This document shows positions 10,714 to 22,421 of a DNA stretch of 64,000 bases, one piece after another. Location of the stretch: NCBI GenBank assembly GCA_965222715.1, contig OZ244961.1, positions 12,172-76,171 of the forward strand. Reading direction: 5' to 3'. The notes under the pieces were generated by a model that saw nothing but the letters and a program-made list of their open reading frames with translations, was not told where the DNA came from and ran no database searches. A program made the position numbers and the translations under genes. Origin of the DNA: Minisyncoccota bacterium. Its GTDB lineage: Bacteria; Patescibacteriota; Minisyncoccia; Phycocordibacterales; JABMNX01. Each line of letters begins with the position of its first letter. Within the stretch, counting starts at the first letter, position 1.

Positions 10714-12234
10714 TTATTTTTTCTTTTGAGTACCCCCTTTTATATTCTCAGCAACACCATGTTTTTTATGAATCTGTGTTACCGCATCTTCTTCCATTTG
10801 TTCGCGTCGTCGCTTCCCTCCTTCTCCGTGTGCTCGAAGACTTTCTTCAGGAAGTTCGCTGAGCTCAACTGCACGCTTTTCAAGATAGGTTGCTTCGTTT
10901 CGTTTTGGGTCATCAAGCACTTCTTCTAAGAGTGCGTGTAGAATATAGCCAACCCGTGGTCCAGCACTTTCTTTAGTAACCTCCATTACACGAGCGCCGT
11001 CAATTTTGAGCATTCCCACAGAAATTGGGTCGCGAAGGGCTTCTTCAACCATTGCTTTATACTTTCTAAAGCGAAATGGTTGTGCTTTCGGCCGACCTGA
11101 ACCAATACGATCACAAATGCGGAGTTTCAAAAGATCCCAAATGTTCTCTTCTCCAACATTACGGATCATCCGCCGTACTGCAGAGAGTGTAATCTTATCT
11201 GGATCAGAAAAAAACATATGCCATCGCACCATTTTTACCAATTTTTCTACTTGTTTTTTAGGAAGTTTTAGGTCGTTAAATGCTTTTTTAGAAATACGAG
11301 CACCAACTACTTCGTGTCCGTAAAACGTCCAATCTTCCTTCTCTGGTGACCATCGGCGTGTCTCTGGTTTTGAAATATCATGGTAAAGTCCGGCAAGTCG
11401 AATATCTACATTCCAGTTCATGTCTGCCCCGTGCTGCATGGTGCGTAGAAGATGCTCAAATACGTCGTATTCATGTGCTTGGTTCTGCTCCACACCAATG
11501 CCACGCTCAAGATCAGGTGCAAAGTACGGCACAAGTCCAAGTTTTTGTGCTATCACAATTGCGTGCATCGGATTGTCTGATTTAAGAATACGTAAAAATT
11601 CATCTCGGATACGTTCCTTTGAAATTTTTTCAAGTTGCTGAGCATTTTTTAGAATCGCTTGAGCAGTATCTGGGTCAATAGTGAAATTGAGTTCTGCTGA
11701 AAGACGAATAGCTCGAAGCATGCGCAGCGCATCTTCTTCAAACCGCTCATGGGGGTCCCCCACCGCACGAATAGTTTTCCGCTTGATGTCTTCGCGACCT
11801 TCGTATAGGTCTACCAACTCTCCTGTTTGCGGACTATATGCGAGTGCATTAATTGTAAAGTCGCGACGCTTGAGATCATCAGTTAATTTTTGTGAATACT
11901 CAACCGTATCTGGGCGTCGCGCGTCTGAGTACGTTGTTTCAAGTCGATATGGAGTCACTTCAACCACTTTCAAATGTTCATTTTCGGTCTCATTTACCAC
12001 ACCGACAGTACCAAAATCATTTTCATAAAATGTCTCCTCAAAGAGCTCTTGAATTTTCTCTGGTGTGGCATTCGTCGTAATATCCCAATCCTTAGGAACT
12101 CTCCCGATAAGTAGATCTCGCACACATCCACCGACAAGATATACCTCAAAACCCCCTTGCTCAAGTGTTTGAGCAACAGCACGGATTTCTTGCGGCACTT
12201 GAGACGCCGCTATCTGTTGTGTTGGAGTTGACAT
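10714..12234 (-). CDS. cca: CCA-adding tRNA nucleotidyltransferase with HD domain
   Basis: GGCVRDLLIGRVPKDWDITTNATPE head motif; HD region HDISK; about 500 aa. Confidence 0.85.
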   Translation of the reverse strand: MSTPTQQIAASQVPQEIRAVAQTLEQGGFEVYLVGGCVRDLLIGRVPKDWDITTNATPEKIQELFEETFYENDFGTVGVVNETENEHLKVVEVTPYRLETTYSDARRPDTVEYSQKLTDDLKRRDFTINALAYSPQTGELVDLYEGREDIKRKTIRAVGDPHERFEEDALRMLRAIRLSAELNFTIDPDTAQAILKNAQQLEKISKERIRDEFLRILKSDNPMHAIVIAQKLGLVPYFAPDLERGIGVEQNQAHEYDVFEHLLRTMQHGADMNWNVDIRLAGLYHDISKPETRRWSPEKEDWTFYGHEVVGARISKKAFNDLKLPKKQVEKLVKMVRWHMFFSDPDKITLSAVRRMIRNVGEENIWDLLKLRICDRIGSGRPKAQPFRFRKYKAMVEEALRDPISVGMLKIDGARVMEVTKESAGPRVGYILHALLEEVLDDPKRNEATYLEKRAVELSELPEESLRAHGEGGKRRREQMEEDAVTQIHKKHGVAENIKGGTQKKK

Positions 12235-12302: not shown

Positions 12303-12374
12303 GCCCCTGTGGTGAAATGGATATCACAACGGTCTTCGGAACCGTTATTCTGGGTTCGAATCCTGGCGGGGGCA
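12303..12374 (+). tRNA. tRNA-Arg (anticodon TCG)
   Basis: Manual cloverleaf: acceptor GCCCCTG/CGGGGGC, D-stem GTGA/TCAC, anticodon stem ACGGT/ACCGT with loop CTTCGGA, T-loop TTCGAAT. CCA not encoded. Confidence 0.85.
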
Positions 12375-12415: not shown

Positions 12416-12684
12416 CTACTTTCTCTAGCGAGGATTCGAACGGAACTTTTGCGCCGAAGGAATAAGCAAAAGTCCGTGGCTCTGGAGGAGTATTGCGAGT
12501 GTATTGTGAACACCTGGAACAATACGAGCAATGCGGAGGAAGAGGAATCCTGGTAGGAGGTACTTAACGAATCAGAGCACGGAGTGCGAATGATGAGTTT
12601 AGTAACCTGACGCCTTGTGCCTAGTAACCATGGTTATAACTCGTGACCGAACCCTGGCATATCAAGGCCACACTACCTCATTTG
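12416..12684 (+). ncRNA. candidate structured ncRNA of unknown class (RNase P-like CR-I/CR-V-like motifs; possible reduced rnpB)
   Basis: 270-nt ORF-free stretch between two tRNAs; AAAGTCCGTGGCTC and GAACCCTGGCATATC resemble RNase P P4-flanking strands; several local hairpins. Confidence 0.3.
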
Positions 12685-12755
12685 TGCGATCACGGGGAAT
12701 CGAACCCCGATCTGCGCCTTGGCAAGGCGCCGTTCTACCACTAAACTATGATCGC
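12685..12755 (-). tRNA. tRNA-Gly (anticodon GCC)
   Basis: Reverse complement GCGATCATAGTTTAGTGGTAGAACGGCGCCTTGCCAAGGCGCAGATCGGGGTTCGATTCCCCGTGATCGCA folds as a canonical cloverleaf. Confidence 0.85.
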
Positions 12756-12758
12756 ATT

Positions 12759-13445
12759 CTACATACCAGATTTTAGTATAAATCCAGGTAAAAGGTCCAG
12801 CCATATTAACATCTTCTCTTTTAAATACCTACTTGAAACCACAAGTGTACACGTACCATACGGTAGACGTCTTGTTTTATGCTTACTAGGCAAAATCATA
12901 GTTTTTGTAAAGTGTTGTAAACCTGTTTCTTTTGACCAAAATATGCGACATTCTTCCTCATTCAAATCTGGGTAGATGAACAAAGCTCCCTTTATTCTAT
13001 TTTCAGGGAAATTACAGATTTCTATAAGAAATTTGAAGAAAATACTAATCATACCAGGATCTGTGTTAGTAATACGCACCAGGTGTTTTGACCGTTTGTC
13101 TCCCTCACCCCAGTACGCAGCAATTGCAAAGATGAAGAGAGGATCTTTTTTAAACTGATTAAACTCAGTCATGGCTTCTTGTCGTGCAATCTCATATTCT
13201 TTTTTCAGCTTCTCACCTCGAATTTTATTCAAGTTTTTTATGCGTATTCTGTGTTCAATGCGAGCAATTTTTAAATTTCGTTCAGTAATCTTCTTTGACC
13301 ACTTCTTCTTCTGTAACCAACCTGACAAGGTGCTTTTTGGCACCCCTAGCTCTTTATGTATCTCATTAAAAGACTTTCCTTTTTTCCTAAGCTCAAACGC
13401 TTTTTGTTTGTCTGATCTCATATTTACTACATTAGCATAAAACAT
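12759..13445 (-). CDS. hypothetical protein with N-terminal IS630/Psq-like HTH; possible decayed mobile-element protein
   Basis: KGKSFNEIHKELGVPKSTLSGWLQK HTH; C-terminal domain unassigned (IAAYWGEGDK only vaguely LAGLIDADG-like); abuts tRNA-Gly. Confidence 0.45.
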   Translation of the reverse strand: MFYANVVNMRSDKQKAFELRKKGKSFNEIHKELGVPKSTLSGWLQKKKWSKKITERNLKIARIEHRIRIKNLNKIRGEKLKKEYEIARQEAMTEFNQFKKDPLFIFAIAAYWGEGDKRSKHLVRITNTDPGMISIFFKFLIEICNFPENRIKGALFIYPDLNEEECRIFWSKETGLQHFTKTMILPSKHKTRRLPYGTCTLVVSSRYLKEKMLIWLDLLPGFILKSGM

Positions 13446-13771: not shown

Positions 13772-14371
13772 ATGAATATTCATAATCTCCTTGATTTCAT
13801 CTCACTCACTATCAAATTTCGTGATGTTGAACGAAAAATATACGCCACAGGGACTACTCGAAACGAAAATGATGCAGAACACAGCTACCAACTCGCTATG
13901 CTTGCTTGGTACATACTTTCACAGGGTAATTATTCTTTAGATCTACACAAGGTCTTACGTTACGCACTCATCCATGATTTTGTGGAAGTATATGCTGGAG
14001 ATGCATGGTTTTACCGCTCAAAAGAAGAATCACGGAAGAAAGAAGCACTTGAGGCAGAATCTGCACAGCGTCTCCAAAAAGAATTCCCTGAATTTACTGA
14101 TTTTCATGAGACAATAGCTGACTACGAAAAACGCCAAGATCCAGAAAGTCGCTTTGTATACGCATTAGATAAACTTATTCCAATTCTCAATGTATATCTT
14201 GACGGTGGTAAGAATTGGAAAAAACACGGTGTTACTTTCGATGCTCTTCTCGAGGCCAAAACATCGAAGATTAAAGTATCTCCTGAAGTAGAGCCATTTT
14301 ATCAAGAACTACTCAGTATTTTAAAGGAACATAAAGATATGTTTCATGTGGAACATACTAAAGAAAAGTAG
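13772..14371 (+). CDS. HD-domain phosphohydrolase (YfbR-like 5'-deoxynucleotidase family)
   Basis: NDAEHSYQLAMLA ... LIHDFVEVYAGD (H..HD..D metal ligands). Confidence 0.75.
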   Translation: MNIHNLLDFISLTIKFRDVERKIYATGTTRNENDAEHSYQLAMLAWYILSQGNYSLDLHKVLRYALIHDFVEVYAGDAWFYRSKEESRKKEALEAESAQRLQKEFPEFTDFHETIADYEKRQDPESRFVYALDKLIPILNVYLDGGKNWKKHGVTFDALLEAKTSKIKVSPEVEPFYQELLSILKEHKDMFHVEHTKEK

Positions 14372-14765
14372 AAAAAAAGAGACCAAAAAGCAGCAAATTG
14401 GTCGTATTGGAGAAGACAGCGCTTGTATGTTTCTCATGAAACAAGGCTTTAGGATACTCGAGCGGAATTATTGGAAGAAATGGGGAGAGATAGATATTAT
14501 TGGAGAAAACAAGGGTGTTTTGCATTTTATAGAAGTGAAAACTGTTTCACGTGAAAACATTAGGTTTGTTACACGAGAAACACTAGATGAGTACCGACCT
14601 GAAGAAAATGTACACCCAAAGAAGCTTGAGCGGCTTCATCGAACTATAGAAACATATTTGCTTGAGAAGAAATACGAAGGGGAGTGGCAGTTAGATGTAG
14701 TGGCAGTATTTCTAGATAGTAAAAATAGGGAAGCGAAATGTCGGATTATCGAGAATGTAGTATAA
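14346..14765 (+). CDS. YraN/UPF0102 family predicted endonuclease
   Basis: GRIGEDSACMFLMKQGFRILERNYWKKWGEIDIIG ... matches the UPF0102 pattern; overlaps the HD gene by 26 nt. Confidence 0.75.
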   Translation: MWNILKKSRKKETKKQQIGRIGEDSACMFLMKQGFRILERNYWKKWGEIDIIGENKGVLHFIEVKTVSRENIRFVTRETLDEYRPEENVHPKKLERLHRTIETYLLEKKYEGEWQLDVVAVFLDSKNREAKCRIIENVV

Positions 14766-15094: not shown

Positions 15095-15165
15095 TGTCGG
15101 GGAGCCGGGAATCGAACCCGGGCCACTCGCTCCCAAAGCGAGCACACTACCATTATGCTACACCC
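15095..15165 (-). tRNA. tRNA-Pro (anticodon TGG)
   Basis: Reverse complement CGGGGTGTAGCATAATGGTAGTGTGCTCGCTTTGGGAGCGAGTGGCCCGGGTTCGATTCCCGGCTCCCCGA; anticodon loop TTTGGGA; one T-T mismatch in the acceptor stem. Confidence 0.8.
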
Positions 15166-15263
15166 CGTTTTGTACCCATATAATAAGTACGCTAACTGGC
15201 AAATTGTACCACACCATAACCATTTATCTAGTCACATAAACCATACATATACCTAGTCATTTT

Positions 15264-16381: not shown

Positions 16382-17602
16382 TTATTTTGCTAGCTCATTA
16401 ACCAGAAGTGAGGTAAGTGCTGGTGCAGTATGTAGGTTAAAAAGGGTTGACTTAACCACAAGATCACCAAAGAGAAGCGCCTCAACACTACTATTCTCTT
16501 GTTGTGTGAGGCTTCTGTTAACGTGACCAAGTGAGATCGCTCGTAAATCACGTTCTGCGGTAGTTTCAGCGCGGGTCGTGGTCACAATCACTCCAATCAG
16601 TTTTCCTTCATCTGATACTGCAGCACCTCCTGATGAGCCACCTTGTGAGACAACAGTTCCTCCAACAGAGAAGAGGTCAACTGTTTGTGCAAGAAACGTA
16701 AAACGATTGCCAACTGTTGCAATACTTGATACTCGAAACAAATCTTTTTCTACCGTTGCACCACTAATGAAGCCAGCAGGGTAGGCTGCAACCAGTACTT
16801 GGTCTCCAGTCTCGATAGCACTACTTGTTGTATCAATTGGTACGTATGGAAATTCATTTGGGAGTGATGCACTTGGATTGGTACGGCCAGTAATACGCAA
16901 AAATGCATAATCATGTTCTCCTGTTCCGGTTGGCTCAGATTCGGTAATTTCAGACGCGTGTTCAGAGACCCATACCGGAGGAATGTAGAGCAATTCTGCG
17001 GTATACGTTGCTCGTGCTGGGCTTCCTGAGCGCAAAATACACGAAAGCGCGTTTTTTGTAGGGTAGTTTTTGAGAAGAAAATACTGCGCAACATGAGCGT
17101 TGGTCACCACCACCCCTCGTGGATCAACAATAACGCCACTACCAGTGATAGGAGTCACTGCAGTCGCAGTATTTTGTGTACAAAATACATTCACCAATGC
17201 TTCTTTAGTATCTATATTTATAGTTGAAAAGGAGAGGGGAGCATCTTGTGAAGTTGTGGGGAGTATTTCATCAATCTCAGTATCAGATGTTGGTATGTCC
17301 TCAGTCGCAATTTCGGTACTTGGTGTAGTTTCAGGTTCTTCATCTTCTACTAGTCCTTCTTCTATATCTTGAGGGGTAGTTGAGTCATTGCCCTCTGACT
17401 CTTCTGGTGCAGGTATGTTGGGTATAGGGGCCACAGGAACATTTTCTTCAATAGTAGCCACAGAACTGGAGTCTTCAATAGGGTCGTGAGGTTGTGGTGT
17501 GGGGGGTTCTGAGACTGATCCAAGCCCAAGTGCTGTTGCTATAGCAACAACACCAACAATAATGCGGGAAATAACTACTTGAATAAGTGGCAAAAATGGC
17601 AT
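16382..17602 (-). CDS. membrane-anchored trypsin-like (S1 family) serine protease with acidic low-complexity linker
   Basis: GSGVIVDPRGVVVTNAHV (His), GGSSGGAAV (Ser) catalytic motifs; N-terminal TM; E/P/T-rich region. Confidence 0.75.
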   Translation of the reverse strand: MPFLPLIQVVISRIIVGVVAIATALGLGSVSEPPTPQPHDPIEDSSSVATIEENVPVAPIPNIPAPEESEGNDSTTPQDIEEGLVEDEEPETTPSTEIATEDIPTSDTEIDEILPTTSQDAPLSFSTINIDTKEALVNVFCTQNTATAVTPITGSGVIVDPRGVVVTNAHVAQYFLLKNYPTKNALSCILRSGSPARATYTAELLYIPPVWVSEHASEITESEPTGTGEHDYAFLRITGRTNPSASLPNEFPYVPIDTTSSAIETGDQVLVAAYPAGFISGATVEKDLFRVSSIATVGNRFTFLAQTVDLFSVGGTVVSQGGSSGGAAVSDEGKLIGVIVTTTRAETTAERDLRAISLGHVNRSLTQQENSSVEALLFGDLVVKSTLFNLHTAPALTSLLVNELAK

Positions 17603-17936: not shown

Positions 17937-18019
17937 TTTCAACTCTCTTTAACACACAACCCCCGCGATTGCGGGGGTTGTGTGTTTTTGGTACGATTAC
18001 ATTCGTTCTATAAAAACTT

Positions 18020-18056
18020 GCGGGTATAGTTTAGTGGTAGAATGACTGCATTCTGT
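18020..18056 (+). pseudogene. tRNA 5'-half fragment (acceptor GCGGGTA, D-arm, anticodon stem 5' strand; loop ATTCTGT)
   Basis: Aligns with the 5' half of the adjacent tRNA-Gly but lacks a 3' anticodon-stem strand. Confidence 0.6.
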
Positions 18057-18072
18057 ACCTCGAGTAGTAAGT

Positions 18073-18143
18073 GCGGGATTAGTTTAATGGTAGAATGACT
18101 GCCTTCCAAGCAGTAGATGGGAGTTCGATTCTCCCATCCCGCA
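18073..18143 (+). tRNA. tRNA-Gly (anticodon TCC)
   Basis: GCGGGATTAGTTTAATGGTAGAATGACTGCCTTCCAAGCAGTAGATGGGAGTTCGATTCTCCCATCCCGCA folds as a canonical cloverleaf. Confidence 0.85.
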
Positions 18144-18191
18144 CTTAACACTCGAGGGCAAGCAGGAAAAACAGTGCTTAAGCACTGTTTT

Positions 18192-18216
18192 TCAGAATTC
18201 GATTCTCTCTACCCGC
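18192..18216 (+). pseudogene. tRNA 3'-end fragment (T-loop TTCGATT + acceptor 3' strand TACCCGC) complementary to the 18020 fragment
   Basis: GAATTCGATTCTCTCTACCCGCACC; TACCCGC pairs perfectly with GCGGGTA of the upstream fragment. Confidence 0.55.
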
Positions 18217-18388
18217 ACCTGTAACACACAAAACTGCAAAAACACCAGACCTAGGTCTGGTGTTTTGCGTATAAATACAAGGTTTCTATAACTACCACAC
18301 TAAAATTGACAACACAGCTTTTAAATGATATAAACTAGTTAGTTTCAACCGTTCTTACACACAACAGCGTATATTTGGAGGGTTTCTC

Positions 18389-19171
18389 ATGAACATTACG
18401 CTTCGCATTATACTCGTCTCATCGCTCTGCGGCCTTCTGGGCGCATGGCTGTCCTATGAATACCTCACCGGTTTCTGGTGGGTACTCGCTACCGGAATCA
18501 GCTTCGTCGGTGCCTGGGTGCTCTACAGTCCGAAAGGTTTCTGGAGCGGCTTCTCCCTTGCCTACGCGCATGCGCGGGGGTGGAGACTCGATCGTGAGTG
18601 GTGTCAGAAGAAGCTCAAGATGATCTGGAGACACGCTTATCTTTTTGGGTGTCTCTTCATGTGGTTGGCCATCATCATAAGTGTTCCACTCCTGATAAAT
18701 GAACCCTTCTCGGCATCTGCAGCTATGGGTGTCGTATTGAATGTCTCGATCTTTGCTGCTGTATGCGGAGGTGTGCTCGCCATACTTTTCCTTGGCGAAT
18801 TGAGTGAAGTTGTCGATGATCTGCTCAGATACATCAACATATTCACCCCGCTCATCCTGCTCATGGCACTGGTACCGGCTACTTTCTGGGTGATTCATAA
18901 AACTCCCAGCGGTATCAGAGCAGCTGGAGATGTCTTGTCGTACTTCGGCAAGTTCCTCCACCGCCTAATGCAGCTCACCATCCTTTACGTCAACTCTGAC
19001 GCACGAATGACCTGCGCTATCTGCGCAGCACTCGGCACAACCGCCGGCCACTTCGTCGGTGAAAAACTCATGGGATGCCTCATCGGCGCACTTGTTGGTG
19101 CCCTTGCTGCACTCATCAGTCGCATTGTCGTCAAATGGATTCCTCAGGAAACCACGACGAACAATGCCTAA
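18389..19171 (+). CDS. hypothetical multi-pass membrane protein, higher-GC codon usage
   Basis: TTGACA-17-TATAAA promoter at 18306-18340, GGAGGG RBS; bidirectional terminators at 19188-19270. Confidence 0.5.
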   Translation: MNITLRIILVSSLCGLLGAWLSYEYLTGFWWVLATGISFVGAWVLYSPKGFWSGFSLAYAHARGWRLDREWCQKKLKMIWRHAYLFGCLFMWLAIIISVPLLINEPFSASAAMGVVLNVSIFAAVCGGVLAILFLGELSEVVDDLLRYINIFTPLILLMALVPATFWVIHKTPSGIRAAGDVLSYFGKFLHRLMQLTILYVNSDARMTCAICAALGTTAGHFVGEKLMGCLIGALVGALAALISRIVVKWIPQETTTNNA

Positions 19172-19284
19172 CCACTGTTTCCATTCACACCCCCGGACAC
19201 TACTCCGGGGGTTCTCTTTTGTATATACACCACCACTAAAAAACACCACAAGTACTTGTGGTGTTTTTTAGGTAGTGTAAAAGA

Positions 19285-19557
19285 TTATTTTACAGCGTCT
19301 TTGAGTGCTTTTGCGGCACGGAACTTTGGTACGCGCATTGCAGGGATTTGAATTGACTCACCGGTTCGTGGGTTACGTCCGGTTCGTGCTCCTCGCATCT
19401 TTGCCTCGAAAATTCCGAGACCTGCAATAGAAACCTCTTGTCCTTCTTTTAGGCCGTTCACAATGCAATTTACCATTGTTTCTACTGCTCGCTCAGCGTC
19501 TGCTTTTGTTCCGCCGAGTGTTTCGTGTACCTTTTCAACGATTGATGCTTTGTTCAT
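19285..19557 (-). CDS. hup: DNA-binding protein HU
   Basis: Whole 90-aa sequence matches HU (GLGIFEAKMRGARTGRNPRTGESIQIPAMRVPKFRAAKALK). Confidence 0.85.
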   Translation of the reverse strand: MNKASIVEKVHETLGGTKADAERAVETMVNCIVNGLKEGQEVSIAGLGIFEAKMRGARTGRNPRTGESIQIPAMRVPKFRAAKALKDAVK

Positions 19558-19777
19558 TGTATCTCTTTACTAAAACGTCATTAATCTCGACCCGTTTATT
19601 CACCGCCAGTACAAAAATGTCTATATTTTGCACCGTGAAATTACACACCCTATTATACAGAGCCATATATTGTACGCAATCCCTACCAAAGAAGACATGT
19701 TTTTTGACAATATTTCAATGTTGTTTTCTTTTAATACAAGAAAACCAGTGTACTGCCTTGAGCGCACTGGTTTTTAT

Positions 19778-19996
19778 TTAACGTAAAGAATGTTGTTGCG
19801 CTTTTCTCAGGTGTCGCGAGGTCATGTTGAGACCCTCAACAATTTGGTGAATACGCCGTCGAACTACCCGAATTTCCTTGGTTTGGAAAATATGATTGAG
19901 TAGCTGCTCAAGTACAGCCCTATCCTCTTCATCGCAAGAGTTTAGTGCCTCTTGAATTGCTTCGGGGCACATTACTTCATGGTCTACGGTGTTCAT
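19778..19996 (-). CDS. hypothetical small protein
   Basis: Start chosen at the internal Met with an upstream AAGAGGG RBS. Confidence 0.3.
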   Translation of the reverse strand: MNTVDHEVMCPEAIQEALNSCDEEDRAVLEQLLNHIFQTKEIRVVRRRIHQIVEGLNMTSRHLRKAQQHSLR

Positions 19997-20110
19997 AAGG
20001 TACCCTCTTAAAAGGAAACTAGCCCGAGTGTACGCTAATGTGATTATATGGTCAACTATGGCAAGTAATAAAGAAACACCACAACCATCTCTGGTTGTGG
20101 TGCGCACGTC

Positions 20111-20389
20111 TCATCCCTTTGAGGGTAGAACGTCTTCGAGTTCTGGATACCCAGGATCCATAGGTCCAATTCCCTTATCTCGGGCATCGTTGCGTCGACG
20201 GACAAGTTCTGCACCAGCTTCAGCAAAGCGGTACTCAAGATCAAGATTTCTGAGCTGATCTTTGTGATATGCAATGGTTTTCTTTTTGAACCACTCATAC
20301 ACCGAAGCGTATGACCAGCCTAAAGTGAAACCAAGCCAAAACATGAATTTTGGTCGAGGCATCACTTTAAAAATGATGACATTGAACAT
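20111..20389 (-). CDS. hypothetical small membrane protein
   Basis: AGGAGG RBS 8 nt before the internal Met MFNVIIFKV. Confidence 0.4.
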   Translation of the reverse strand: MFNVIIFKVMPRPKFMFWLGFTLGWSYASVYEWFKKKTIAYHKDQLRNLDLEYRFAEAGAELVRRRNDARDKGIGPMDPGYPELEDVLPSKG

Positions 20390-20454
20390 GGCGAAACCTC
20401 CTACTTGTTTCTGATCTAAATATACCCTCAGAGAATATGAATGCAAGAAGAAGT

Positions 20455-21984
20455 TTATCGAGCAAATTCAACTGCCCGATTCTCACGAATAACATTTACC
20501 TTAATTTCACCAGGATATTTCAATTCATTTTCTATTTGAAGCGCAATATCTCGGGCTAATTTTTTAGCTTCAAGATCTGAGACCTCTTCAGGAGTCACAA
20601 AAACACGGATTTCACGACCTGCTTGGATAGCGTAACTTTTCTCAACTCCAGAAAAGCGATTTGCAATACCTTCAAGATCTTCAAGTCGTTGTACATAGTT
20701 TTCAATAGTGTCACGTCGTGCACCTGGGCGGCCACCAGAGATAGCATCAGCAACTTGTACAATGATCGCTTCAGGAGTCTCATATGGATACTCTTCATGA
20801 TGCGCTTGCATTGCTTTAATGATTGCCTCATCAACACCAAATTTCTGCAAGATTCGGCGACCAATTTCAACATGAGTACCTTGTACTTCATGATCAACTG
20901 CTTTTCCAATGTCGTGAAGCAGCGCTCCAGCGCGTGCTACGTACGGATCAGCACCAAGTTCTTCTGCAAGCATCCCAGCAATGTGCGCCATCTCAACAGA
21001 GTGGTAAAGTACGTTTTGTCCGTAGCTGGTGCGGAAATGAAGGCGGCCGAGGATACTGACGACTCGTGGGTCAAGGTTGTGTACTCCTGAGTCATACGCG
21101 GCTTTCTCTCCTTTTTCTTTAATAGTTTTCTGCACCTCATCTTTTGCTTTCTGAACCATTTCTTCAATCTTTGCAGGCTGAATTCTTCCGTCGGTTATCA
21201 GGTTTTCAAGTGCAACACGCGCTACATGACGACGAATTGGGTCAAACGATGAAAGAGTAATGACATTTGGTGTGTCATCGATGATGACATCAACACCAGT
21301 TGCTCGCTCGAATGCCTTAATATTACGGCCTTCTTTCCCAATAATCTTTCCTTTCACTTCTTCTGAGGGAATATGTACCGACGTAGTCATAATGTCGTCA
21401 ATCACTGAGTTGCCAAGTCGATGAATTGAGGTCGTCAGGATGTCACGCGCTTTTTGATCAAGCCGTTCTTTTCCTGATATTTCAAGTTTTTGCATGCGAA
21501 GGAGAATATCTTCCTCGCACCTCTTTTCGATGAGTTGTAGGAGTTCTGTTCGGGCTTCCTCTTCACTTAGTCCCACAACTTTTTCAAGCTGTGTTTTTCG
21601 TTCATCAATGAGTGCCTCTGCTTTTTCTCGTAGTGAGCGCACTTCTTCAATCTTTTTCTTTATACTCTCAACATCTTCATCAATATCCACCTGACGTTTG
21701 TCGAGTAGCTCTTCTTTTTTAATCAATCGGTCTTCTGTTTTTTTCAGTTGACCTTCTTTTTCTTTAAGCTCTGCCTTTAGGGCAGTCACTTCTTCTTCTA
21801 CTTTTTTCTCTGCATCGTGAGTAATGCGTTTTGCTTCTTCTTTTGCTTCAAGCATCATCTGCTTGATTTCAAGCTCCATTGATCCCCGTTTACCGAGTGA
21901 GATAATCCACCGCAAGAAGTAGCCAAACGCAGTCCCTATAAGACCTGCAAGGATAAGTAGAACAAATACTACTTTTAATGACAT
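20455..21984 (-). CDS. rny: ribonuclease Y
   Basis: N-terminal TM, coiled coil, KH (GKIIGKEGRNIKAFE), HD domain (LLHDIGKA). Confidence 0.85.
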   Translation of the reverse strand: MSLKVVFVLLILAGLIGTAFGYFLRWIISLGKRGSMELEIKQMMLEAKEEAKRITHDAEKKVEEEVTALKAELKEKEGQLKKTEDRLIKKEELLDKRQVDIDEDVESIKKKIEEVRSLREKAEALIDERKTQLEKVVGLSEEEARTELLQLIEKRCEEDILLRMQKLEISGKERLDQKARDILTTSIHRLGNSVIDDIMTTSVHIPSEEVKGKIIGKEGRNIKAFERATGVDVIIDDTPNVITLSSFDPIRRHVARVALENLITDGRIQPAKIEEMVQKAKDEVQKTIKEKGEKAAYDSGVHNLDPRVVSILGRLHFRTSYGQNVLYHSVEMAHIAGMLAEELGADPYVARAGALLHDIGKAVDHEVQGTHVEIGRRILQKFGVDEAIIKAMQAHHEEYPYETPEAIIVQVADAISGGRPGARRDTIENYVQRLEDLEGIANRFSGVEKSYAIQAGREIRVFVTPEEVSDLEAKKLARDIALQIENELKYPGEIKVNVIRENRAVEFAR

Positions 21985-22421
21985 ATATGCGAGCCTACCT
22001 GGGGCAGGCAGGAAATCTCGCTTTTTCTAGCTTCGTTAAAGAATTCTACTATGGGTTATATCGTCAAAATACATAGATTCTAAGCCGTTTTTCAAGAGAT
22101 ATCAGTCAATCAGTCAAAGGCAGTAAAAAGCGTGATTTCAATTTAATTCAAATAATGTGCACTTTCACTATAGCACCAGGATTTTTAGTTGTCGAATATA
22201 CTAAAAACCACGACCAAGCCGTGGTTTTTTAAGTCTCTATCCAAGCATTTAATTACTTAAGTACTTCTTCAATAAGCGTCAGGTTTCTAAGCTCACTACG
22301 TTCGCTAAGAACCTCCTGCCCGGGCTCGTTGTTGCTCGCATACTCGCGACATAACTCCACCTCGTTATTGATGACAAACAAGACGAAGGTCTTCTTTTAA
22401 GTTTTAAAAAATTTTAGAGGG

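Follow-up and report, generated by a model that had tools for sequence, protein, structure and literature searches.

An intact tRNA-Gly(TCC) gene flanked by remnants of another allele: a probable recombination scar in a Paceibacteria chromosome

Introduction

Split and permuted tRNA genes, whose 5′ and 3′ halves are encoded apart, occur in Nanoarchaeum and in some Thermoproteales or algae; the halves are complete and equipped with joining sequences, and the tRNA concerned has no other source. The partial, non-canonical tRNA genes of prokaryotes are portrayed in PMC9897764 as truncated, non-functional copies that adjoin canonical genes and stem from the activity of genetic elements. Many are formed by site-specific integration, the outcome of which is the classical tRNA-gene (tDNA) island: according to the outline given for the Islander database (PMC4383910), it comprises a regenerated tRNA gene, an island with an integrase and a displaced 3′ fragment, so that an intact gene followed by a direct repeat of its 3′ end from the T-loop is the hallmark. 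Homology-facilitated illegitimate recombination is described as an established way in which DNA that is homologous at one end only becomes integrated (PMC3240628), and mosaic short-patch replacement may likewise follow DNA uptake (PMC3240628; PMC13344027).

Here we describe a locus in a 64,000-nt stretch of contig OZ244961.1 (the whole of which is hereafter called the window), in which an intact tRNA-Gly(TCC) gene lies between two pieces of a second, decayed tRNA gene. We consider it probable that the locus is a recombination scar in which two allelic versions of tRNA-Gly(TCC) were imperfectly spliced. Each of the described systems resembles it in part. Its 5′ and 3′ halves are encoded apart as in split tRNA genes; unlike those, they miss 13-17 nt, are separated by a terminator and coexist with an intact gene. 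Like the partial genes of PMC9897764, the pieces adjoin a canonical gene; in contrast to the copies described in that account, the old gene has left its two ends on either side of the new one, and ARAGORN and Rfam call neither of them. The locus shares with tDNA islands, as the Islander account presents them, the intact tRNA followed by a direct copy of its 3′ end from the T-loop and the proximity of compositionally odd foreign DNA. It differs from them in that it has no integrase, gene and fragment are only 51 nt apart, the cargo is not enclosed by the repeat pair, the fragment represents a different allele (4/24 differences, including paired acceptor changes), and there is a 5′ fragment, which is not a product of attP-type integration.

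Results and discussion

Two remnants of a second tRNA-Gly(TCC) gene

Relatives were collected with RNase Y of the window as the query and one genome per species, which yielded 80 loci, all from metagenome-assembled Patescibacteria labelled as Parcubacteria/Paceibacterota and Kaiserbacteria- or Taylorbacteria-like. The nearest by RNase Y were L001 (84%), L002 (83%) and L003 (76%), and the RNase Y neighbour-joining tree had the topology (L003,(window,(L001,L002))).

The intact gene is a canonical tRNA with a score of 73.9 bits against Rfam RF00005 (gathering score, 29) and is presumably functional. The initial annotation, made by inspection of the sequence, had described two pieces of a second tRNA around it and proposed ARAGORN as a check. 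At this locus ARAGORN and Rfam called the intact tRNA-Gly(TCC) and neither fragment, and an Rfam search of the fragments and the 51-nt insert at E up to 10 returned only chance matches, so that identity with a known RNA family was dropped. The two pieces were identified by comparison with intact genes of the relatives. The 5′ piece (GCGGGTATAGTTTAGTGGTAGAATGACTGCATTC) matches the first 34 nt of the L002 tRNA-Gly(TCC) at 33 of 34 positions, with 1 mismatch, and the core of the 3′ piece (TTCGATTCTCTCTACCCGCA) agrees with the final 20 nt of the L003 gene at every position (20/20); neither match was reproduced in 100 shuffles (0 for each). From the intact gene of the window itself, the 5′ piece differs at 3 positions within the 34-nt query (4 by direct comparison of the window sequences) and the 3′ piece also at 3. 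A profile of 58 tRNA-Gly(TCC) genes (nhmmer) detected both fragments, with an E-value of 2e-4 for the 5′ piece. Both pieces are thus true remnants of a second tRNA gene.

The limits first given for the fragments, 18020-18056 and 18192-18216, were a few bases off; the homologies extend over 18020-18053 and 18198-18217. Similarity on the 3′ side may start at ~18193-18195, in accordance with a 24-nt direct repeat (D5; 18121-18144 and 18195-18218, same orientation, 83% identity, 4/24 positions differing). The acceptor strands of the two pieces, GCGGGTA and TACCCGC, are complementary at 7/7 positions and, as the initial annotation had recognized, pair with each other and not with the GCGGGAT/ATCCCGC acceptor of the inner gene. 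Taken as one gene, the fragments cover tRNA positions 1-34 and ~52-71. The 13-17 nt absent between them would have encoded the third anticodon base, the anticodon-stem 3′ strand, the variable loop and most of the T-stem 5′ strand, and the four arms of a canonical tRNA are not present.

The decayed gene had been taken for a tRNA-Arg(TCT) because of an apparent anticodon loop, ATTCTGT. The homology of the 5′ piece to tRNA-Gly(TCC) spans ACTGC-ATTC and then stops, at 18053; the next T is a spacer base, and the loop is an artefact of the junction. Since the homology ends after T34-C35, the decayed gene was a tRNA-Gly(TCC). We infer that the fragments are non-functional relics and that the intact gene is the sole supplier of tRNA-Gly(UCC).

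Two allele types of the gene

The tRNA-Gly(TCC) genes of these bacteria can be divided into two types. The T-type (acceptor GCGGGTA/TACCCGC; T-stem GAGAG/CTCTC) is carried by L002 and L003, whose genes are 96% identical and lie intact at the orthologous site, between the protease gene and the gene for the DNA-binding protein HU. An uninterrupted counterpart, which the initial annotation had suggested looking for in relatives, is therefore present, albeit as a tRNA-Gly(TCC) and not as the expected tRNA-Arg. The A-type (acceptor GCGGGAT/ATCCCGC; T-stem GGGAG/CTCCC) is found in L001, in the inner gene of the window and in the majority of the wider group. Throughout its length, the inner gene is of the A-type, differing from the T-type at positions 6, 7, 15, 46, 50 and 63-67; it is 96% identical over 72 nt to the gene of another relative, L008, and 86-87% identical to those of L001, L002 and L003. 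The A-type alleles of the window and L001 (86% identical) have different anticodon stems.

Because the outgroup L003 shares the T-type with L002, this type is ancestral in the four-genome clade, and because the window and L001 carry two distinct A-type alleles, the gene was replaced at least twice. In the window, T-type remnants flank the A-type gene on both sides.

The 5′ remnant and its spacer are shared with L003

The 5′ remnant is followed by a 19-nt spacer (TGTACCTCGAGTAGTAAGT). In L003, a degenerate copy of the 5′ piece (12162-12191, minus strand) is broken at the identical point, after TTC, and stands before the intact T-type gene; the spacer between them (GTACATTGAGTCATAAGA) is homologous to that of the window and occupies the same position, with 13/18 matches and one indel. 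By our own binomial estimate, the probability of 13/18 matches at a fixed position is ~3e-5. No 3′ remnant is present at the L003 locus. The 5′ piece, its breakpoint and the spacer are common to the window and L003, which points to a single origin unconnected with the A-type allele. Piece and spacer therefore predate the 3′ scar, and the two fragments are probably not counterparts from a single break. Most simply, it would be a partial tandem duplication of ~53 nt that occurred in the ancestor of the clade, the 5′ unit having later been lost from L001 and L002 by recombination between direct repeats.

In L088, the region before tRNA-Gly(TCC) (87-176) contains two degenerate tandem units, each consisting of ~18 nt of the tRNA 5′ end and an 18-nt spacer ending in ...ATAAGTAAG, which indicates that partial 5′ duplications of tRNA-Gly(TCC) recur.

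A perfect 8-bp inverted repeat (CCTCGAGT/ACTCGAGG; 18058-18065 and 18150-18157) flanks the intact tRNA of the window at distances of 7 and 6 nt from its ends. The two arms are paired in the predicted fold, the repeat is absent from L001-L003, and its left arm lies within the spacer.

The 3′ remnant remains joined to its native flank

The 51 nt between the intact gene and the 3′ fragment (a flank we call h51) hold the terminator hairpin noticed earlier, a perfect 14-bp stem followed by a T run (18166-18193). At the right junction (18194/18195), the terminator tail is joined to the T-loop without homology. The left junction cannot be placed, since the spacer and the 5′ piece are common to L003. 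The DNA that follows the 3′ remnant, including a terminator hairpin (T1), is 88% identical over 41 nt to the flank of the intact L003 T-type tRNA and collinear with the CCAGAC...GTCTGG hairpin after the L002 tRNA. This collinearity of tRNA end and flank with L003 and L002 indicates that the 3′ remnant is still joined to its native downstream DNA. h51 and the T1 flank have a common layout (TAACAC, GCA-AAAAACA, stem, TGTTTT). Further downstream, an orthologue of the terminator T3 (a CACTA-AAAA-stem-TTTT-TAGnTAGTG hairpin) adjoins HU in L001, L002 and L003. A search with blastn-short among 107 related loci for donors of the spacer, h51, T1 and the flanks of the cassette described below gave only 12-17-nt noise.

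Origin of the locus

The imperfect splicing of two alleles, which we consider the probable origin of the locus, can be envisaged in three steps. A partial tandem duplication of ~53 nt (the spacer and tRNA positions 1-34) would have given rise to the 5′ piece before the lineages of the window and L003 separated. DNA of a related bacterium would then have recombined at the locus, with one homologous junction and one illegitimate junction in the T-arm, either by homology-facilitated illegitimate recombination or by a short-patch replacement that missed the right-hand end; in this way, the resident and the incoming 3′ ends would both have been kept. Finally, perhaps in the same event, a 1-kb membrane-protein cassette would have entered the slot between T1 and T3. 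The resident may have been an A-type locus (tRNA-hairpin-T3-HU) that took up a block composed of the T-type 3′ end, T1 and the cassette from a T-type relative, with the homology anchor on the right and the illegitimate join on the left. Alternatively, an A-type patch may have come into a resident T-type locus. No recombinase was found within ~9 kb of the locus by Pfam searches of 19 open reading frames (ORFs; 9.3 to 26.2 kb).

The relatives L084 and L085 are ~99% identical over 900 nt on each side of tRNA-Gly(TCC) (47-50/50 per 50-nt segment upstream, and beyond ~350 nt downstream). In contrast, identity drops to 64-82% in the gene and the next ~80 nt (L084 3560-3633 versus L085 4305-4378, and also L087); the divergent patch begins at tRNA position 6 and tapers off over ~350 nt downstream. 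Its extent is approximately that of the A-type gene of the window with its 51-nt flank. We take the patch as direct evidence of short-patch allele replacement of tRNA-Gly(TCC), which therefore recurs. This clean patch over the same gene, together with the partial duplication that one homologous and one illegitimate junction would leave, likens the window locus to the processes outlined in PMC3240628 and PMC13344027; unlike in those accounts, the process is here read from its end product, with no donor identified and in uncultured bacteria. The scar is thus of a known kind, recombination at a tRNA gene, whereas its two-sided, two-allele, integrase-free form is unusual.

Several points weigh against this explanation. 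The tRNAs of the clade are generally divergent (70-96% identity), so that the allele types may partly reflect fast evolution rather than transfer. The 5′ piece of the window is nearly intact, while the homologous L003 copy has indels, which would be odd for an old relic unless gene conversion had refreshed it. The 107 related loci yielded no donor for the spacer, the A-type gene or h51, and the collections searched contained no closer relative; either allele may therefore have been the resident one, in one event or in several. All of the genomes are metagenome assemblies, and a two-strain chimera at a repeated tRNA is formally possible; the ordered, non-redundant layout argues otherwise. The junction pattern AATGACTGCNTTC-(0-1)-GTACNTNGAGT had 0 matches in the metagenome collection.

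The initial annotation had one tRNA gene split by one insertion. In its explicit form, this would be a cassette of ~142 nt (spacer, A-type tRNA and terminator) that entered a T-type gene in one step and deleted 13-17 nt from the anticodon to the T-arm, so that the fragments are the halves of a single break. The idea accounts for two fragments of the same allele with fully pairing acceptor strands and complementary coverage of the tRNA, and the 8-bp inverted repeat brackets the inner gene as cassette ends would. It is rendered doubtful by L003, where the 5′ fragment, the breakpoint and the spacer precede an intact T-type gene without any 3′ fragment: the left junction either predates the A-type allele or is independent of it, and the left arm of the inverted repeat sits in the very spacer that L003 shares. 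The one-step insertion could be upheld only if L003 had undergone a secondary deletion between direct repeats and its inner gene had been T-type, and we regard this explanation as unlikely. A slightly lower probability is given to the site-specific integration of a tyrosine-integrase element into the T-loop or 3′ end, by which the gene would have been regenerated from attP and its native end displaced (attR), the element being later deleted except for 51 nt. Besides the direct 3′-end repeat and the foreign cargo nearby, this proposal can draw on small tRNA-adjoining elements in relatives that terminate in a duplicate of the tRNA 3′ end. Among the features that define tDNA islands, however, only the direct 3′ repeat is present; recombinase, intervening cargo and a native 5′ part are absent, and the cargo lies beyond the native terminator T1. 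Moreover, the inner gene is A-type in its 5′ acceptor strand, D-loop and variable loop as well, beyond the part that attP would supply, the two 3′ ends differ from each other, and the 5′ fragment is left unexplained. Of the earlier suggestion that foreign DNA was integrated or recombined at the tRNA, the acquired gene stands; its placement beyond fragment and terminator and the lack of an integrase do not fit a classical island.

A purely local history of tandem duplications of tRNA and terminator, followed by deletions and divergence and without foreign DNA at the tRNA itself, is favoured by the partial tandem repeats of the tRNA 5′ end in L088 and L003 and by the similar layout of h51 and the T1 flank. 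It requires at least two duplications and two deletions, and the inner copy differs by paired compensatory changes (6:67 and 7:66) and in the T-stem, while the outer pieces are nearly identical to the L002 and L003 genes; this is the pattern of allele import and not of in-situ drift, and we consider the local history improbable. In a functional arrangement, the outer halves would pair in the transcript and either make up a split or nested tRNA or serve as a stem in the processing of the inner one. The minimum-free-energy fold does pair the outer acceptor strands and forms a CCUCGAGU/ACUCGAGG stem around the inner tRNA (z-score -10.3). The low energy is mainly due to the tRNA and three terminator hairpins, a terminator stands between the halves, and the outer 'gene' has no third anticodon base, anticodon-arm 3′ half, variable loop or T-stem 5′ strand. 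Such a role is highly improbable, and a functional split tRNA is effectively refuted by the non-conservation of the layout in L001, L002 and L003, along with the missing nucleotides and the intact isoacceptor gene between the halves.

A membrane-protein cassette between the tRNA and HU genes

The distance between the tRNA and HU genes is 59-70 nt in L001 and L003, where it holds the bidirectional terminator only, 292 nt in L002, where a small structured repeat occupies this variable slot, and 1141 nt in the window. Among more distant relatives, the gap can be as short as 52 nt or as long as 8 kb and its genes differ, some of this variation being ordinary loss of synteny. The window slot contains the 260-aa membrane-protein ORF (18389-19171) pointed out in the initial annotation, together with the following signals: TTGACA (18306-18311), a 17-nt spacer and TGaTATAAA (18326-18334), GGAGGG (18377-18382), and hairpins on both sides (18239-18266; 19189-19212; 19236-19271). 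Its G+C content at third codon positions (GC3) is 0.61, compared with 0.337 +/- 0.066 for 43 ORFs of the window, i.e. ~4 sd above the mean and the most extreme value in the window.

The gene is not located between tRNA and HU in L001, L002 or L003, and no homologue was found in the 107 related loci or in the tRNA-HU gaps of 29 relatives. A word-indexed search with the protein returned only the identical sequence. An exhaustive HMMER search yielded 73 other cluster representatives (74 listed with the identical one), which are of similar length and have identities of <=31% over the full length; a source name was given for 2 of the 7 homologues looked up, in both cases a Patescibacteria hypothetical protein. 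The nearest homologue, P0002 (L108 4001-4774), shows 23-29% identity, depending on the alignment, and is encoded in another Patescibacterium in the order HU, YmdB, P0002, a 182-aa ORF, DUF559, RNase Y and ClpP; a tRNA-Gly was not found in this L108 locus. Based on its absence from L001-L003, the GC3 value and the exclusively distant Patescibacteria homologues, we regard the ORF as a real gene on an acquired cassette between T1 and T3, in agreement with the foreign origin originally proposed. The protein matched no Pfam family. Its AlphaFold model (41 sequences) is all-helical with a pLDDT of 86 and gave no PDB fold match, and the conserved C-terminal region is glycine-zipper-like.

Two collinear repeat pairs, ~1 kb apart, bracket the cassette. 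The hairpin region of h51 recurs as a direct repeat (D2; 18157-18190 and 19147-19180, 26/34 matches, 76%, 0/200 shuffles), and T1 resembles T3 (18238-18266 and 19239-19267, 23/29 matches); within the 64 kb, the partners of a pair are each other's best non-self matches. This suggests that the cassette may have arrived by a recombination that duplicated or imported a hairpin-to-terminator segment. The C-terminal tails of the homologues vary in length, and the last codons of the ORF, which overlap the second copy, may be read-through into a former hairpin.

Host and conserved neighbourhood

The window is a chromosomal segment of a member of the Paceibacteria (Patescibacteria). The genes near the locus are housekeeping genes (CCA-adding enzyme, MscS, trypsin-like protease, HU, RNase Y, ClpP and trigger factor by Pfam searches), and a phage origin was rejected on account of these neighbours and because no nucleotide or protein match was found in the phage collection. 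Exact-protein look-ups of the window proteins gave no record. A protease-anchored metagenome scan for a closer genome retrieved only relatives with <=60% identity (<=54% if near-full-length). The features of the locus are listed in Table 1.

The order tRNA-Arg(TCG), tRNA-Gly(GCC), tRNA-Pro(TGG), protease, tRNA-Gly(TCC), HU and RNase Y is widely kept in relatives, and tRNA-Gly(TCC) adjoins HU in most of the 80 related genomes. In L001, L002 and L003, a homologue of the 46-aa ORF and its hairpin precedes tRNA-Gly(TCC); this ORF matched no Pfam family. After the upstream terminator, TTGGTA is found in the window, L001 and L003, and TTGATA in L002. The leader hexamers are a possible promoter of the tRNA transcript; they and those of the membrane-protein ORF were read by eye, a consensus promoter scan having listed neither.

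Table 1. Positions of the features discussed (coordinates in the window, or in the related locus named)
Feature	Position	Strand	Remarks
Trypsin-like protease gene	16382-17602	-	Pfam search
Small acidic ORF, 46 aa	17796-17936	+	Conserved upstream neighbour of the tRNA locus; with terminator 17951-17986
Leader with TTGGTA, 15 nt, TATAAA	17987-18019	+	Candidate tRNA promoter, read by eye
5′ remnant of T-type tRNA-Gly(TCC)	18020-18053	+	Acceptor 5′ strand, D-arm, anticodon-stem 5′ strand, loop to T34-C35
19-nt spacer	18054-18072	+	Between 5′ remnant and intact gene
Intact tRNA-Gly(TCC), A-type	18073-18144/18143	+	ARAGORN; Rfam RF00005
h51, 3′ flank of intact gene (CTTAACACTCGAGGGCAAGCAGGAAAAACAGTGC)	18145-18194	+	Right arm of inverted repeat 18150-18157; terminator-like hairpin 18166-18193
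3′ remnant of T-type tRNA-Gly(TCC)	18195-18218	+	T-loop, T-stem 3′ strand, acceptor 3′ strand, discriminator A
Native flank of T-type gene	18219-18270	+	Terminator hairpin T1 (18239-18266); collinear with relatives
Putative acquired cassette	18271-19232	+	Promoter-like TTGACA-17-TGaTATAAA, ribosome-binding site, 260-aa gene, G+C-rich terminator 19189-19212
Decayed copy of h51 hairpin region	19147-19180	+	Overlaps last codons and stop of membrane-protein gene
Bidirectional terminator T3	19236-19271	.	Perfect 18-bp palindrome; HU-shared, ancestral right border of variable slot
HU (DNA-binding protein) gene	19285-19557	-	Downstream anchor; Pfam PF00216, E 1e-29
RNase Y gene	20455-21984	-	Pfam search
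R1 copies, among others	L027 7155-7318; L044 16655-16790; L039 12054-12190; L022 6697-6832		
R1 copies, among others	L002 13956-14105, 11700-11849, 8860-9006; L001 14884-15025; L003 15670-15790		

The alleles of the other three conserved tRNA genes, tRNA-Arg(TCG), tRNA-Gly(GCC) and tRNA-Pro(TGG) (12303-12374, 12684-12755 and 15096-15167 in the window), group the four genomes unlike the RNase Y tree; tRNA-Arg of the window is 96% identical to that of L002 and 83% to that of L001, and tRNA-Pro is 89% identical to that of L003 and 70% to that of L001. Adjoining tRNA-Gly(GCC), a 228-aa ORF (12759-13445, minus strand) has transposase-type helix-turn-helix matches (CENP-B_N, HTH_23 and Sleeping Beauty HTH). 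A T-loop-like GTTCGAATCC motif lies outside any called tRNA at ~12436-12460, ~245 nt downstream of tRNA-Gly(GCC). The spacer between HU and RNase Y (19558-20454) is ~900 nt long in the window versus 207-294 nt in L001-L003. It contains two small ORFs without Pfam match (19778-20107 and 20111-20446, both on the minus strand) and a terminator (20076-20103), and is probably another lineage-specific insertion.

A structured repeat linked to tRNA genes

In many relatives, an element of 100-160 nt, designated R1, lies just downstream of tRNA-Gly(TCC), tRNA-Gly(GCC), tRNA-Pro or tRNA-Arg (Table 1). Its 5′ stretch is complementary to the 3′ end of the adjoining tRNA, its conserved core reads GAATCGAA-GGCGGAG ... 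CGAGCC-GGG, and its 3′ end repeats that of the adjoining tRNA, starting with CGATTC in the T-loop. Sixteen copies were used to build a covariance model, which gave 26 matches with E < 1e-3 in 97 loci, with up to three per 20 kb; R1 is thus multi-copy, and it is patchily distributed among close relatives. Covariation is strong: 86.8% of cells are paired, compared with 65% in shuffles and <=48% with the partners slid, and in 17 of 20 pairs both partners show changes. No Rfam family was matched by R1 of the relatives at E up to 10, and the whole window gave no non-tRNA Rfam match at gathering thresholds. R1 appears to be an undescribed structured repeat linked to tRNA genes, with a well-supported structure, and may represent either a mobile element or a small RNA that mimics a tRNA.

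The window contains an R1 copy between clpP and RNase Y (22254-22383, minus strand; 33.6 bits, E 5e-8), which does not adjoin a tRNA and is followed by its own terminator (~22205-22232). With filters off, the R1 model found nothing over h51 or the 3′ fragment (18145-18218) in a search of the whole window; at the tRNA locus, only weak matches were obtained on the intact tRNA (18080-18147, plus strand, 14.8 bits; 18061-18144, minus strand, 7.7 bits). Because the model matches neither h51 nor the 3′ fragment, R1 did not make the scar of the window. The possibility that the 3′ fragment is an R1 terminal repeat was ruled out by this covariance search and by the extent of the fragment, which keeps the T-loop TT that is absent in R1-type repeats. 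R1 nevertheless shows that tRNA T-loops are prone to recombination in this group.

In L042, the 4.9-kb gap between HU (13863-14132) and tRNA-Gly(TCC) (19080-19151) holds an R1 copy (14322-14479) and a 541-aa ORF that, judged by eye from its N-terminal ...YARKSTEEDDKQIMSIEAQ..., is a candidate large serine recombinase.

More broadly, the tRNA genes of streamlined Paceibacteria might be exchangeable cassettes: patches of tRNA and terminator would be swapped between lineages, as caught between the 99%-identical strains, perhaps under selection for acceptor or anticodon-stem variants that, for example, escape tRNA-targeting toxins or phage nucleases, while R1 enters T-loops and copies the tRNA 3′ end. 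The scar of the window would then be a frozen intermediate. We offer this wider view as speculation with a rather low probability.

Conclusions

The tRNA-Gly(TCC) locus provides a worked example of tRNA allele replacement without an integrase, and a warning that tRNA-like fragments should not be taken for split genes or for another isoacceptor. For bacteria with tiny genomes, whose routes of gene acquisition are poorly known, it also marks the stretch between tRNA-Gly(TCC) and HU as a slot in which genes are gained. If patch replacement and R1 prove to be general, it would become testable how Patescibacteria exchange DNA and whether their tRNA genes face diversifying pressure.

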